64,000 nucleotides of DNA, taken from an uncultured Thermoplasmata archaeon (GTDB taxonomy: Archaea > Thermoplasmatota > Thermoplasmata > UBA10834). Under the pieces are notes generated by a model. The model had not been told where the DNA came from. It saw only the letters and a program-made list of their open reading frames with translations, and did not search any database. Shown here in pieces: positions 9,675 to 35,801 of the stretch (position 1 is its first letter; each line of letters starts with the position of its first letter). The stretch spans positions 686,818 through 750,817 of the forward strand of contig OY970070.1 of the NCBI GenBank assembly GCA_963705355.1. The letters are read 5' to 3'. The position numbers and the translations under genes were made by a program.

Positions 9675-9748
9675 GGGGTAGTGGTCTAGCTTGGTATGAT
9701 CCGTGGTTCGGGACCACGTGACCGTCGGTTCAAATCCGACCTACCCCA
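9675..9748 (+). tRNA. tRNA-Pro (anticodon CGG)
   Basis: Hand-folded cloverleaf: acceptor GGGGTAG/CTACCCC, anticodon stem CGTGG/CCACG with loop TTCGGGA, T-arm GTCGG-TTCAAAT-CCGAC, discriminator A; CCA not encoded. Confidence 0.8.
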
Positions 9749-9823: not shown

Positions 9824-9934
9824 GCAGGTGTAATCTAGCTGGTTAGGATTTTGGCCTTCCAACTCTTCAAGAAATATGATAAAATTGGAGAGGGACGAAA
9901 GCCAACGGCCCGGGTTCAAATCCCGGCACCTGCA
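9824..9934 (+). tRNA. tRNA-Gly (anticodon TCC) with an approx. 38-nt anticodon-loop intron
   Basis: Acceptor GCAGGTG/CACCTGC, D-arm ATCT...GGAT, anticodon stem TTGGC (9851-9855) pairing with GCCAA (9901-9905) across a 38-nt insert after loop position 37; T-arm CCGGG-TTCAAAT-CCCGG. Confidence 0.7.
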
Positions 9935-23657: not shown

Positions 23658-23763
23658 TGGCGGGCTTGAAGGGATTCGAACCCTTGGCCAACCGGTGTCT
23701 CCTTCCGTTCCTTTCAGAACCGAAGTAAGAGCCGGTTGCTCTACCTAGCTGAGCTACAAGCCC
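23658..23763 (-). tRNA. tRNA-Lys (anticodon CTT) with approx. 29-nt anticodon-loop intron and genomically encoded CCA
   Basis: Minus-strand fold: acceptor GGGCTTG/CAAGCCC, D-arm GCTC-AGCTAGGTA-GAGC, anticodon stem ACCGG/CCGGT split by insert after position 37, T-arm AAGGG-TTCGAAT-CCCTT, discriminator G then CCA. Confidence 0.75.
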
Positions 23764-28621: not shown

Positions 28622-28740
28622 GCATCATTAATGTATTTGATGCTTGTGCGTTGCAGATTCTGCAGCAAATCAGGTGGCAAAGGCACTGGATAGCATCGAT
28701 GCCAACTTCCAAGTGCTACACGTAGTCAGAGAAGCATAAT

Positions 28741-29979
28741 ATGCTAGCCATCGTCAAGGACGAGATGCTGGTGAAGGGAGTCGCCTTCCGTCTGGACTCG
28801 GGCCTTCCGGCGGATGCGAAGTTCCTGCTCGAAGACTTCAGATTGGCAGTCAACAACGCGATCAGGGCAGGTCTTCAAGCGCGGGTGACTTCGAGAAATG
28901 CCCTGGTTAGGATCGCGTACAAGGACTTTCGCCACCAACATCCAAGGATGTATTCCCAACATCTGGTATCGGCCTTCGAAGTGGCCGGGAGCGTGCTCAA
29001 GAACTATCGCAGGCGGGTTCGAAAAGGGGGCAGCTGCAGAATCCCCTTCGTCAAGCGCCTGATTATGAAAGCAGAGAATCAGGCGTACAAGCTCGATCGG
29101 AAGTCCGGAGTCATCGACCTTCCGATCAGGGCTGGCTGTCATGTCAAGTTGAAGCTCGTCGTCAGCAAGTATCATCGGAAGTATCTGGACGATTTGGCCC
29201 TTTCTCTCGGTTCCCTGACAATTCTCCCCGACCGAGTCATAGTCGCATTCAGGAAGGATGCTCCCAGACAGTATACACCCGCATCAGTGTTGTCGCTCGA
29301 CACCAACGAGCGCAGTCTGGACGGCGTGCTCATCGAGGGTGATGCCGCCAAGGCTGTCAAAGCGGAGTTCCCAGAAGTCGCAATCATCCAGCAGCAGCAT
29401 CACGATAGGCGCAAGAGGTTTCAGAAGAAGAAAGCGCATGACAGGCGTACTTCGAGAAACCTTTGCAGGAGAGAAGGGGCGAGGGAGCACCACCGGATAG
29501 ACTACAGGATGCACCAAGTGGCAGATGCTGTCATTTCGTTCGCTGAGAGACAAAAGTCCGCAGTCGTTCTCGAGGATCTGAAAGGCATCAAATCGAAAAG
29601 GAGCAAGGAACTGAATCGGCGACTCAGCATGTGGCCCAGGCGAAAGCTTCACCAGATCATCGAGTACAAGGCACAATGGAAGGGCATCCCAGTAGTCAAG
29701 GTCGATCCAAGATACAGCAGCAGAACGTGCCCGATATGTGGGAGGATACAGGATTCCCGAATGGGCGCGGAGTTCAAATGTGATTGTGGCTGGCACCTCG
29801 ACAGGCACATCAACGCCAGCATCAACCTGCTGCAGACAGCCATCTCGAAGGGGATGGCAGGGGGTTTACGGTTCAACCCCGGCGCGTTCCAGCATGACGT
29901 GATGATGATCCCATACGAGCCAGCGATGGCCGCACGGTCGGAGCCGAATGGAACGAGTGGCATTTGCGAAGTGACCTGA
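28741..29979 (+). CDS. tnpB: TnpB/OrfB (IS200/IS605-family, IS1341-like) RuvC-type RNA-guided nuclease homolog
   Basis: RuvC-I-like SLDTNE, C-terminal zinc finger CPICG...CDCG and DRHINASINLL motif; no tnpA nearby. Confidence 0.8.
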   Translation: MLAIVKDEMLVKGVAFRLDSGLPADAKFLLEDFRLAVNNAIRAGLQARVTSRNALVRIAYKDFRHQHPRMYSQHLVSAFEVAGSVLKNYRRRVRKGGSCRIPFVKRLIMKAENQAYKLDRKSGVIDLPIRAGCHVKLKLVVSKYHRKYLDDLALSLGSLTILPDRVIVAFRKDAPRQYTPASVLSLDTNERSLDGVLIEGDAAKAVKAEFPEVAIIQQQHHDRRKRFQKKKAHDRRTSRNLCRREGAREHHRIDYRMHQVADAVISFAERQKSAVVLEDLKGIKSKRSKELNRRLSMWPRRKLHQIIEYKAQWKGIPVVKVDPRYSSRTCPICGRIQDSRMGAEFKCDCGWHLDRHINASINLLQTAISKGMAGGLRFNPGAFQHDVMMIPYEPAMAARSEPNGTSGICEVT

Positions 29980-30017
29980 TGGTCACCACCCGACAATGCA
30001 ACAGAACCTGCGTTGCA
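28741..30017 (+). mobile_element. solo IS200/IS605-type tnpB element including 3' hairpin region (boundaries approximate)
   Basis: tnpB ORF plus hairpins at 29971-29986 (GTGACC-tgat-GGTCAC across the stop codon) and 29997-30017 (TGCAAC/GTTGCA stem). Confidence 0.4.
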
Positions 30018-30043
30018 CTTAGCCGATACGGGAGACTAATATT

Positions 30044-30379
30044 ATGGCTGGACGTTACCTCACCAGGAAGAAGTCGATGACCCCTAAGACGTCGGTTAAG
30101 CCTCATGGTACGGGATGCGTCGTGACGATAGACGTGTCGATCGGAGCAGCGAAGAGCCAGATTGTAGGCGTGAACCGCTGGAGAGGAACGCTTCATGTGC
30201 GGATATCCGCGGAACCAAGGGACGGCGCGGCGAACGAGGAGCTATTGAGATTCCTTTCCGAGAAGCTGGGTGTCCCTAGAGGTGACATCGTCATCATGAG
30301 AGGAGAGAAGTCCTCCCGGAAGGTCGTCCATCTGCCTATTCCTTCGGACCGAGCGACCTCCGCTCTGGAGGACAAGTGA
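30044..30379 (+). CDS. DUF167/YggU-family protein
   Basis: Motif GTLHVRISAEPRDGAANEELLRFLSEKLGVPRGDIVIMRGEKSSRKVV. Confidence 0.65.
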   Translation: MAGRYLTRKKSMTPKTSVKPHGTGCVVTIDVSIGAAKSQIVGVNRWRGTLHVRISAEPRDGAANEELLRFLSEKLGVPRGDIVIMRGEKSSRKVVHLPIPSDRATSALEDK

Positions 30380-34610: not shown

Positions 34611-35801
34611 ATGCATCCAGCGGATCATCTGAGGGGTTCCAAGAGCGAGAAATTGAATGGCCGCAAGATCGTCCTTGGCGTGACGGGCAGCATAGCAGCC
34701 GTCGAGACTGTGAAGTTATGCAGAGAGCTCATCAGGAATGGCGCCGACGTGCATGTGGTCATGTCGAGGGACGCGCAAACGATCGTGCACCCATGGGCGC
34801 TCCAGTTCGCCTCGGGCAGAGAGGTCATCACAGCCATCGACGGGAACGTCCAGCATGTGTCCCTCTGCGGCGATGTTCCCGACAGGGCCGATCTTCTTCT
34901 AATCGCGCCCGCGACAGCGAACACGATATCCAAGATGGCATGCGGGATTGACGACACGTCCGTGACGACGATGGCCACAACTGCAATGGGGACTGGAATT
35001 CCTGTGATTGTTGTCCCTGCAATGCACTACTCAATGATGGAACACAAGATAGTTCTGGAGAACATCAAGAAACTTGAGAGGATAGGGGTGACCTTCCTCG
35101 AGCCGAAGATACAAGAGTCGAAGGCCAAGATGCCCTCGATCGACTACATCGTTTCCTCAGTTATCGCCGCGATCGGCAAGAGGGACTTGGTCGGGCGCAA
35201 GGTCCTCGTCATCGCCGGAGCGACAGAGGAGCCGATCGACGACATAAGGGTCGTGACCAGCAGGAGTTCGGGCGAAACAGGGATCGAGCTTGCCAGAGCC
35301 GCGCAAGAGAGGGGAGCGAGCGTCGAGCTTTGGATGGGCAGAGCAGAGGCCGACCTGCCAGAACACATCACCACCAGAAGATACCGTTCGTTCAAGGATC
35401 TGTCGAGGATGATCCAAGGGAGGAGGTTCGATATCGTTATGTTCCCAGCAGCGGTATCGGACTACTCACCTCGGAAGGTCCAGGGGAAGATACCATCAGA
35501 TAGCGCGAAGGTCAGCCTTGAGCTGAGGAGGAATCCGAAGCTCATCGACCGCCTCAAGGCAAGGCTGGTCGTCGGGTTCAAGGCACAGACGAAGATAGGA
35601 GACACCGAGCTGATTCAGGAATCTCTCAAGCTGATCAAGAGATCGAAGTGCTGCATGGTTGTCGCAAACAAGATGGAGCATGTGAAGCCGGGAAGAACTC
35701 GCGTCCTGCTCGTTCAGAAGAACGGCGACACGGAAGAGCTGGAGGGCACGAAATCCCATGTCGCTGACCAGATCATCGACAAGGTCGTAAGGATGATGTG
35801 A
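34611..35801 (+). CDS. coaBC: bifunctional phosphopantothenoylcysteine decarboxylase / phosphopantothenate-cysteine ligase
   Basis: N-terminal flavoprotein motif (KIVLGVTGSIAA ... PATANTISKMA) and C-terminal CoaB-like half. Confidence 0.85.
   Translation: MHPADHLRGSKSEKLNGRKIVLGVTGSIAAVETVKLCRELIRNGADVHVVMSRDAQTIVHPWALQFASGREVITAIDGNVQHVSLCGDVPDRADLLLIAPATANTISKMACGIDDTSVTTMATTAMGTGIPVIVVPAMHYSMMEHKIVLENIKKLERIGVTFLEPKIQESKAKMPSIDYIVSSVIAAIGKRDLVGRKVLVIAGATEEPIDDIRVVTSRSSGETGIELARAAQERGASVELWMGRAEADLPEHITTRRYRSFKDLSRMIQGRRFDIVMFPAAVSDYSPRKVQGKIPSDSAKVSLELRRNPKLIDRLKARLVVGFKAQTKIGDTELIQESLKLIKRSKCCMVVANKMEHVKPGRTRVLLVQKNGDTEELEGTKSHVADQIIDKVVRMM

Follow-up and report, generated by a model that had tools for sequence, protein, structure and literature searches.

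The tnpB gene and its product

The window (the whole 64,000-nucleotide stretch of DNA that was analysed) carries a tnpB open reading frame between a GINS-like gene and DUF167/Toprim genes. The ORF lies within a transposon bounded by terminal inverted repeats and a target-site duplication (Table 1). The preliminary description of this locus had reported a 412-aa TnpB ORF, and this was confirmed by matches to NCBIfam NF040570 (TnpB RNA-guided endonuclease family; 105.4 bits, cutoff 100) and Pfam TNB / PF07282 (78 bits, cutoff 26.3; 5e-22) and by a full-length fold match. The AF2 model (pLDDT 86.9) resembled Cas12f and TnpB (ternary) complexes in Foldseek over its full length, with a TM of about 0.7, and model and search together showed a WED/REC/RuvC/zinc-finger architecture. 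The best whole-protein matches, in sequence as well as in fold, were Cas12f (AsCas12f, OsCas12f) and the TnpB of 9nzp. Judged by sequence and model, the ORF is a full-length TnpB/Cas12f-like RNA-guided nuclease gene with predicted nuclease activity.

Table 1. Features of the element and its flanks, in window coordinates
Feature	Position	Strand	Remarks
Transposon	28656-30008		1,353 bp; homology among copies stops at both limits
TTG, candidate TAM (consensus TTK)	28644-28646	+	directly 5' of left target duplication
Left target-site duplication, 9 bp, TGCGTTGCA	28647-28655	+	identical 9-mer at 30009-30017
Upstream palindrome TGCAGATTCTGCA	28652-28664		not in other copies
Left terminal inverted repeat GATTCTGCAGCAAATCAGGTGGCA	28656-28679	+	left ends of >40 copies aligned
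Conserved left-end non-coding segment	28715-28742	+	palindrome GCTACA(C/T)GTAGTC, then TAATATA-like box (28736-42); in all close copies
tnpB ORF	28741-29979	+	412 aa; HMM matches, fold, motifs, purifying selection on protein body
RuvC-I D187 (SLDTNE)	29299-29301	+	
RuvC-II E278	29572-29574	+	
Zinc finger C330/C333/C347/C349 (CPICG...CDCG)		+	cysteines conserved
His356 at RuvC-III Asp position	29806-29808	+	
Predicted omega-RNA scaffold	29716-30008	+	overlaps last ~88 tnpB codons, runs to last element base
Hairpin 1, GTGACC-TGAT-GGTCAC	29971-29986	+	terminal stem-loop of scaffold, TGA stop in loop
Right terminal inverted repeat CACCACCCGACAATGCAACAGAACC	29984-30008	+	also scaffold 3' end; homology of all copies stops right after ...CAGAACC
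Hairpin 2, TGCAAC-N9-GTTGCA	29997-30017		not in other copies
Predicted guide TGCGTTGCACTTAGCCGATA	30009-30028	+	right target duplication (30009-30017) plus ~11 nt of flank; length assumed

Many copies of the element have no upstream ATG at 28741, and the true start of tnpB is likely to be the ATG at 28765, giving a protein of 404 aa. The upstream ATG falls within the conserved TAATATA box, whose centre lies 26 nt 5' of 28765 and which may serve a leaderless tnpB mRNA as its archaeal TATA box. The idea that the flank must provide a promoter was discarded, as the element has this conserved TATA-like box of its own.

The motifs SLDTNE, CPICG...CDCG and DRHINASINLL were all present in the sequence where they had been reported. 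Of the RuvC residues, D187 and E278 are present, whereas DRHINASINLL is noncanonical: the canonical motif is DRDxNAAxN, and its catalytic Asp is replaced by His356, so that the third position of the D-E-D triad differs. Throughout the clade this residue is His; sister clades have Gln or His, and distant clades have Asp. The preliminary description had named inactivating substitutions in the catalytic residues as evidence against its reading, and the replacement of Asp by His partly counts as such; the change is clade-wide, and TnpB branches with a D-to-H replacement are described as presumed or probably active in the account of PMC10691335.

Ends of the element, target duplication and empty site

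Some 60 copies in genomes of Thermoplasmata served to set the boundaries, together with a close relative in which the site is empty. Alignment of the copies, proposed in the preliminary description, fixed the left end at 28656 and the right end at 30008. The terminal inverted repeats are 24-25 bp long, and the left repeat of the window copy is a degenerate form of the consensus GGTTCTGGAACAATTCGGGTGGTG, deviating at 6-7 of 24 positions, with the terminal GG changed to GA. The empty site was located through a 97%-identical GINS protein in L193-L195 and has one copy of the 9-mer (TGCGCTGCA); exact look-ups of the GINS and DUF167 proteins of the window returned no record. Duplications matching at 9/9 or 8/9 positions were observed in roughly 25 other copies, mini elements included. 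About one third of the copies had no matching duplications, which we tentatively put down to copies having recombined with one another or to chimeric assembly. The original assignment to the IS200/IS605 type, which has subterminal hairpins at both ends, was not upheld: the 24-25-bp inverted repeats and the 9-bp duplication, which the empty site confirms, are typical of DDE transposons and by definition missing from IS200/IS605 and IS607 elements.

The position between the GINS-like and DUF167/Toprim genes had been described correctly and simply reflects insertion into the GINS/DUF167 intergenic spacer. Comparison with the empty site showed that the insertion parts DUF167 from its former upstream region. 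A copy at the same site was present in a 96%-identical relative, and copies of about 83% identity sat in unrelated contexts, with several copies per genome. Copies within one genome were 83-92% identical with intact ORFs, and we read the intact ORFs in copies so diverged as a sign of long retention. No tnpA partner was present in the window, in agreement with the preliminary description, and self-comparison of the window revealed no second copy of the element or related repeat. Additional inverted-repeat-like matches in the loci were due to chance.

The 3' end as a predicted guide-RNA scaffold

Nucleotide conservation in the scaffold region was at least 95%, third codon positions included. Divergence at third positions was about 35% in the gene body versus 4-15% in 29836-29976, where codon-position bias was absent; the C-terminal ~28 residues encoded by this segment were predicted to be disordered in the AF2 model. 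RNAalifold yielded 52 pairs for the scaffold, 16 of them with compensatory changes, and mini elements of 397-460 bp kept exactly the scaffold region, the rest of tnpB being lost. Comparison of the copies showed that the last ~290 nt are constrained as structured RNA ending at the element boundary, which fits an omega-RNA scaffold. The expectation that a guide RNA derives from the 3' end of the gene and the right end was thus borne out at the level of a conserved structured RNA, by the conservation, the compensatory pairs and the codon-independent constraint. A covariance-model search, likewise proposed at the outset, was run against Rfam with gathering and E-value thresholds and matched no omega-RNA family.

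Hairpin 1, hairpin 2 and the upstream palindrome all exist in the sequence as reported; as structures of an omega-RNA or right end they fared differently. Hairpin 1 is a covarying part of the scaffold, its stem being kept in nearly all of about 50 copies through compensatory changes (GUGACC/GGUCAC, GGUCAU/AUGACC, GUGAUCU/AGAUCAC and others). Hairpin 2 and the palindrome are coincidental, as they are missing in other copies; each has one arm in a terminal inverted repeat and the other in the locus-specific 9-bp duplication. Nine perfect 6-bp stems were counted in 28622-30043, compared with 3.8 +/- 2.3 in dinucleotide shuffles, 2.7% of which reached nine. A lone perfect 6-bp stem is not unusual, and signal was told from noise by conservation only.

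The sequence 3' of the scaffold differed in every copy, and in the empty site TTG precedes the matching sequence.

A TT(K) motif beside the insertions

In a logo of 43 independent left flanks, T occupied position -12 in 41/43 and position -11 in 43/43, and G or T occupied position -10 in 35/43 (P ~1e-22 for the TT motif). An AT-rich tract at -21..-16 accompanied TT, and the right flank carried no information (flat logo). With TT(K) lying 5' of the left duplication, an empty site reads TTK followed by the guide match, which is how a site for TnpB homing or retention should be arranged. Guide-directed transposition was also considered and rejected, as the flanks of different copies are unrelated.

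IS6-type ends and the search for a transposase

The reverse complement of the right repeat, GGTTCTGTTGCA..., equals the first 12 nt of a published IS6-family inverted repeat (PMC2920175). The consensus ends, GGTTCTG..., correspond to IS6-type repeats beginning with GG, while the left end of the window copy itself begins with GA. IS6 elements usually duplicate 8 bp, as was seen in the IS240-type element L163, whereas the TnpB elements had target duplications of 9 bp. In L163 and L189-192, DDE_Tnp_IS240 genes have near-identical repeats on either side. These two IS240-type elements with related ends (n=2) showed no TT at the corresponding left-end position, and L189-192 had TTT at its other end, so that the two sites do not discriminate between readings of the TT.

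No ORF for an IS240-type DDE transposase was found in the element or the window, and none in about 130 Thermoplasmata loci, so the element can only be a non-autonomous IS6 derivative. A search of all loci and of the window, translated in six frames, with an HMM of IS240-type transposases matched nothing beyond L163 and L188-192. Scanning metagenome contigs with the repeat pattern yielded 120 stretches, of which 20 were TnpB-like and one (L163) IS240-type, the rest looking like chance matches of a 16-base pattern; the same scan of viral contigs gave nothing relevant. A weak tblastn match at window positions 35478-35534 belonged to a CoaBC-like gene and was discarded as a transposase.

The P0150 loci, which amount to a single truncated IS6 fragment at one site, were of no use for target statistics.

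Relation to known systems

DDE-associated TnpBs have been described (Altae-Tran et al. 2023, PMC10691335), with ISL2, IS630 and IS1031 types (PMC13565253). The present element resembles them, as portrayed there, in having inverted terminal repeats and a TnpB no more than about 250 bp from an end of the transposon, and the solo TnpBs with such ends, which are thought to be mobilised in trans, are its counterpart. It differs from them in its IS6/IS240-type ends, its 9-bp duplication and the lack of any linked DDE gene found. IS6/IS240-type ends do not appear among the DDE-TnpB types in the main text of PMC10691335 or PMC13565253. The geometry of TAM, duplication and guide, as well as the mini elements, were worked out in the present analysis.

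The lone tnpB, the omega-RNA over its 3' end and the guide in the right flank are shared with IS1341-type solo TnpBs (ISDra2, IS608 relatives, haloarchaeal IS1341), as is the presence of many diverged and few near-identical copies per archaeal genome (PMC3119063). IS1341-type elements have no inverted repeats and no duplication, and their TAM abuts directly; the present element is the opposite in all three. With the IS6 family (IS26, IS257/IS431, IS1216, ISS1 and archaeal IS240-type elements) it shares the start of the repeat and a short target duplication without a sequence of its own. Unlike IS6, it has no transposase gene, carries TnpB and a guide RNA as cargo, duplicates 9 rather than 8 bp and has a one-sided TT.

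Fanzor1 in eukaryotic TIR transposons is similar in being a TnpB homologue within a DDE-type transposon with inverted repeats and target duplications. PMC13565253 assigns its 5' duplication to the TAM and its 3' duplication to the RNA scaffold. The duplication of the present element is variable and must therefore make up the first 9 nucleotides of the guide; the TAM then lies outside it, unlike in Fanzor1. Cas12f has a T-rich PAM (NTTR), and a T-rich 5' motif is common to both systems. The differences from Cas12f are the lack of a CRISPR array, the derivation of the guide from the transposon flank and the replacement of the RuvC-III Asp by His.

Proposed mechanism and alternatives

The element at 28656-30008 is probably a non-autonomous IS6-like insertion sequence whose sole cargo is TnpB with its omega-RNA scaffold, serving homing or retention via TTK. 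It would be moved by an IS6-like DDE transposase acting in trans on the inverted repeats, and the IS6/IS240 partner would be expected to have GGTTCTG-N8/9-CGGGTGGTG ends. The RNA would be transcribed through the right end, so that its 3' tail, the guide, would comprise the duplicated 9 bp and the adjacent flank. TnpB with this RNA could then recognise element-free copies of the chromosome, in which TTK, the 9-mer and the flank would follow one another as TAM and contiguous guide match. Such empty copies would be cut or bound, and recombinational repair from the occupied copy would restore or spread the insertion. Copies not beside a TAM would be unprotected and lost over time, and for this reason the surviving old copies would carry TT.

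A point against this explanation is the lack of an IS6-type transposase in the window and the Thermoplasmata loci. Further points against it are the duplication of 9 instead of 8 bp, the third of the copies without matching duplications, and His356, with which the protein may not cut. The near-invariant TT (41/43 and 43/43) would also have to result from a very strong retention filter. IS6-family transposition is replicative, by cointegrate and without excision, and so there would be no excision for 'restorative' homing to follow. A 2026 review argues, in the terms of PMC13565253, that TnpB benefits mainly excising elements.

It is rather unlikely that TT(K) is a target preference of the transposase, with the TAM of TnpB co-evolved or unrelated and TnpB having no role in the survival of copies. 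For IS605 and IS607, PMC13565253 describes a transposase that itself picks a TAM-like target, and the AT-rich tract at the left flank would fit the many transposases that favour AT-rich or bent DNA. Relative to the orientation of the element, however, the motif is found strictly on one side, which a DDE transposase would not usually produce from near-symmetrical ends.

We give little credence to a part of TnpB in integration itself, whether as a transposase, with an RNase-H-fold D-E-H site acting on the inverted repeats, or by reading TTK and placing or catalysing integration 0-9 bp downstream, so that target choice would be physically coupled to TnpB. The altered catalytic site and the absence of a transposase near any copy would agree with such a role, and the TT frequency is above what a simple drive advantage predicts. 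On the other hand, the ends are typical of IS6 and elsewhere flank IS240 DDE genes, the unrelated flanks exclude insertion directed by the guide, and TnpB has repeatedly been dispensable for transposition in other families, as reported in PMC8612924. If integration were coupled to TnpB, each new copy would be born with a working pair of TAM and guide, and this would be TAM-directed, guide-independent transposition, distinct from CRISPR-associated transposons.

Still less probable is that the window copy is a domesticated or decaying relic that no longer moves or cuts and may bind DNA under RNA guidance as a regulator of the neighbouring DUF167/Toprim operon. His356, the departures of the left repeat from the consensus including its terminal GA, the fixation of the copy at the same site in the 96%-identical relative and the separation of DUF167 from its former upstream region could all be taken in this sense. 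Against it, the His is clade-wide in a family with many transpositions and under purifying selection, the guide matches its own flank only, and the empty site in a close relative indicates that the gene is not a conserved host function. In contrast to TldR-type proteins, recognised by a fixed context, lost ends and lost catalytic residues, the contexts vary, both ends and the duplications are intact, a close relative has the empty site and one catalytic position only is altered.

A classical solo-TnpB IS200/IS605 element (IS1341-type), mobilised in trans as single-stranded DNA by a Y1 TnpA that recognises the terminal hairpins, is very improbable: a TnpB with a 3' omega-RNA-like region, an absent transposase and a T-rich motif 5' of the left end resembling the IS605 target preference would suit it, but the proposed end hairpins are not conserved, TT lies 9 duplicated bases away from the left end instead of abutting it, and the 24-25-bp repeats and 9-bp duplication rule out a peel-and-paste element, a kind that lacks both according to PMC13565253 and PMC3119063.

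Implications

TnpB has been understood mainly from IS605 and IS607, scarless elements that excise and that it re-installs afterwards. Here, TnpB and a predicted guide RNA were found within IS6-type ends, and IS6 elements, by current understanding, make a target duplication and multiply by copying, with no excision step. The guide system appears adapted to this, with the variable duplication opening the guide as its first 9 nt and TT(K) just outside, so that the uninterrupted allele would be the only target. As a resource, the element offers a defined scaffold, a predicted TAM, natural mini elements that carry the guide RNA only, and a compact Cas12f-like enzyme (404 aa) in whose active site His naturally replaces Asp. 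It also provides a concrete case in which to ask what TnpB does for DDE transposons: it may act as a drive from one chromosome copy to another, filter against the loss of copies, or assist in the choice of targets.

Results

More than 1,000 homologues of the TnpB protein were found, nearly all in Thermoplasmata metagenomes, and one scan of species-representative genomes yielded 64 loci, many of which lie at the end of a contig; genomes carried several copies each. Copies of about 83% identity were placed between unrelated genes, and one copy of 96% identity was syntenic with the window. Alignment of TnpB copies, proposed in the preliminary description as a means of defining the ends, revealed shared boundaries: homology starts at G(G/A)TTCTG (28656) and stops sharply after ...CAACAGAACC (30008). 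The ends are inverted repeats of 24-25 bp, with the left consensus GGTTCTGGAACAATTCGGGTGGTG and the right end, reverse-complemented, GGTTCTGTTGCATTATCGGGTGGTG. Immediately outside, the window copy carries an identical 9-bp direct repeat, and the outer 9-mers agree at nine or eight of nine positions in roughly 25 additional independent copies. In relatives with a 97%-identical GINS protein, GINS abuts DUF167, and the spacer ...GATGCTTG TGCGCTGCA CTTGATCG... contains the 9-mer only once. Flank alignments and matching 9-mers, with this empty site as the decisive control, thus define the element and its insertion with a 9-bp target-site duplication.

Matching 9-bp repeats were absent in about one third of the full-length copies (L002, L004, L008, L009, L010, L051, L053, L157, L164 and L177), which nevertheless have the left TT(K); this suggests that copies have exchanged flanks by recombination, or that metagenome assemblies are chimeric at the repeat. 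The left repeat of the window copy departs from the consensus at 6-7 of its 24 positions, among them the terminal GG, which is GA, as does that of the 96% relative; the copy may no longer be mobile, and its tnpB and scaffold look intact. The insertion also splits DUF167/Toprim from the former upstream spacer. The ATG at 30044, the listed DUF167 start, is AGG in empty-site relatives, where the gene is called with 100 aa, and translation probably starts instead at an ATG 11 codons further 3' (about 30077).

Coordinates of features in the window and in compared loci (L-numbers)
Feature	Position	Remark
Element	28656-30008	
9-bp direct repeats	28647-28655; 30009-30017	TGCGTTGCA
Predicted TAM	28644-28646	TTG; from flank motif
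Palindrome	28652-28664	TGCAGATTCTGCA
Near-palindrome	28715-28727	GCTACA(C/T)GTAGTC
tnpB ORF	28741-29979	412 aa
Predicted scaffold	29716-30008	
Codons of C-terminal tail	29893-29976	residues ~385-412
Stop-codon hairpin	29971-29986	perfect 6-bp stem; TGA stop in 4-nt loop
Second hairpin	29997-30017	6-bp stem
Predicted guide	from 30009	opens TGCGTTGCACTTAGCC; directly 3' of scaffold
Listed DUF167 start	30044-30079	
tRNA genes	9675-9748 (+); 9824-9934 (+); 23661-23763 (-)	
Mini elements	L063:2343-2802; L064:2362-2805; L065:2363-2807; L066:2394-2802; L067:2107-2503	
Mini elements	L061; L090; L095; L156	
IS6/IS240-type elements with passenger genes	L163:1561-3077; L189:262-1956	

IS200/IS605 and IS607 elements have neither inverted repeats nor target duplication (PMC13565253, PMC3119063), so that membership in either group is ruled out by the repeats and the duplication. 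The IS200/IS605 type originally assigned is likewise contradicted by the empty site, and the TnpB sits in a different kind of transposon; the reported lack of a tnpA partner was confirmed, the window containing neither tnpA nor a second copy. The right-end repeat opens with GGTTCTGTTGCA, the same 12 nt with which the IS6-family inverted repeat quoted in PMC2920175 begins. Scanning metagenome contigs with the repeat pattern revealed a locus (L163) with near-identical repeats, an 8-bp duplication and a truncated DDE_Tnp_IS240/rve_3 gene, lacking TnpB. A homologue of this DDE gene lies in four further loci (L189-192) within a 1.7-kb element with repeats GGTTCTGyAAACTTATCGAGTGGTA. The GGTTCTGTTGCA identity and these related repeats assign the ends, as judged by sequence, to an archaeal IS6/IS240-type family, and the TnpB element would accordingly be a non-autonomous IS6/IS240 relative moved in trans. 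An HMM of the L163/L189-192-type DDE proteins gave no match to an IS6/IS240-like transposase in the window or the Thermoplasmata loci. The IS6/IS240-type elements of L163 and L189 also carry passenger genes: that of L163 encodes a 226-aa protein predicted to be membrane-bound or secreted, and that of L189 is methyltransferase-like. At 104-147 aa the DDE genes of both are short, and they may be truncated or split.

Flank statistics were obtained from 43 independent insertions. Directly 5' of the duplicated 9-mer, T was found at -12 in 41 of 43 and at -11 in all, followed by G or T at -10 in 35; a logo of the 30-nt right flank held no information. Since the left TT(K) precedes the duplication, the 9-mer of an uninterrupted allele has TTK directly 5' and the right flank directly 3'. 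A tract rich in AT and resembling a TATA box (ATAA/TATA) was also seen at -21 to -16 in the left flanks of the 43 copies, at a fixed distance 5' of the TT motif; it may belong to a longer recognition motif, or reflect either a promoter-DNA preference or a bias of intergenic sites.

Conservation in the 3'-terminal ~290 nt of the element far exceeds that of the remainder. Between 29860 and 29958 almost all columns are at least 95% identical in 53 copies, third codon positions included, and 29836-29976 shows few changes and no codon-position bias, a constraint at the RNA level. The C-terminal ~28 residues are predicted to be disordered (pLDDT below 50) and their codons are the element's most conserved nucleotides; this tail has the look of guide-RNA scaffold that is translated, not of a peptide with a function of its own. 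RNAalifold analysis of 50 copies predicted 52 pairs, 16 with compensatory double changes. In the long hairpin, for example, the apical stem has CG replaced by GC in 21 sequences and AU replaced by GC, CG or UA in 19; in the GGGGGU/ACCCC stem, 11-13 sequences have CG in place of UA. The proposed covariance-model check for omega-RNA structure gave no match of the 3' region to Rfam families. Nine mini elements of 397-460 bp contain both repeats, a short left segment and exactly the 3' region (of tnpB, the final ~270 nt); perfect 9-bp duplications and the TT motif occur in most of them, and the mini elements look like guide-RNA-only non-autonomous derivatives. Because the scaffold runs to the last base of the element and the following sequence differs in every copy, the latter would be the expected guide.

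Three small inverted repeats had been noted and are present as described. The region contains nine 6-bp stems, versus 3.8 +/- 2.3 in shuffles; single stems are at chance level, and only comparison among copies tells which matter. The stop-codon hairpin, blurred in the alignment by an indel-rich stretch, was found nearly everywhere when folded copy by copy, its arms differing yet complementary; together with the compensatory pairs and the well-defined right end, this upholds its placement in a candidate omega-RNA region. The second hairpin pairs TGCAAC of the right repeat with GTTGCA of the duplicated target, and the palindrome spans the junction between the target's end (TGCA) and the first bases of the left repeat. 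As each takes one part from the duplicated target and neither recurred in the other copies compared, both are accidents of the target sequence of this copy.

The ORF was verified as TnpB by the NCBIfam TnpB model (105 bits, cutoff 100), by the Pfam Cas12f1-like TNB domain and by its fold; the nearest solved structures by sequence are TnpB 9nzp and Cas12f enzymes. An AlphaFold2 model from 55 homologues (pLDDT 86.9, pTM 0.80) superposed over its full length with AsCas12f and OsCas12f (TM ~0.7), and also with the ISFba1 and ISDra2 TnpBs. RuvC-I D187, one of the hallmarks first listed, and RuvC-II E278 are canonical, but DRHINAS, also listed, departs from canonical DRDxNAA: His356 replaces the catalytic aspartate, one of the RuvC residues at which inactivating substitutions had been named as refuting. 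In the clade of this TnpB the His is fixed; the position is Gln or His in sister clades and Asp further away. Asp-to-His branches, several archaeal, have been argued from conservation to remain active (Altae-Tran et al. 2023, PMC10691335). The active site is non-canonical, and the His356 enzyme might be active. Third-position differences in the gene body exceed those at first and second positions 3-4 fold, indicating purifying selection on the protein.

Roughly half of the homologues are 404 aa long, and in these the upstream ATG reads ATA. In the window the upstream ATG falls within a conserved TAATATA-like box centred 26 nt 5' of the second ATG (28765); as archaeal TATA boxes usually lie at such a distance from the start, this points to a leaderless mRNA beginning at 28765. 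The near-palindrome just 5' of the box is conserved in almost all copies and could be an operator or factor-binding site for tnpB control.

Of the three tRNA genes in the window, two measure ~103-111 nt, as would fit archaeal tRNAs with introns.

Discussion

TnpBs have been described inside inverted-ended DDE elements, among them solo copies that bear the same ends (PMC10691335), and a 2026 review (PMC13565253) classes such elements as ISL2, IS630 and IS1031 types; IS6 is not named in the accessible text of either.

For TnpB and Cas12f, the guide match must be contiguous and directly preceded by a T-rich motif, and the empty allele shows this arrangement for the predicted guide. In Fanzor1 the duplication is part of the TAM; here it is variable, so that it cannot belong to the TAM and must form the guide start.

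The data demonstrate the insertion with its duplication, the IS6-type ends, the constraint on the RNA and the TT on one side only. Beyond this, the element would be mobilised in trans by an IS6-like transposase and its scaffold transcribed through the right end, and TnpB with this RNA could recognise empty alleles, leading to homing or retention. Insertions next to no TAM would be unprotected and disappear, leaving the one-sided TT. Same-genome copies are only 83-92% identical with intact ORFs, which fits long-term retention of rare insertions and recalls a long-standing puzzle, the diverged IS1341-type copies of haloarchaea. Alternatively, the TT could be a preference of the transposase itself, or TnpB could assist in placing the insertion. 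Guide-directed transposition is excluded by the unrelated flanks among copies.

IS6 elements are generally held to be replicative, without excision. Any benefit of TnpB here would then be drive between copies of a chromosome or replicon, or protection from deletion, rather than post-excision repair, so that this IS6-ended TnpB family offers a useful test case.
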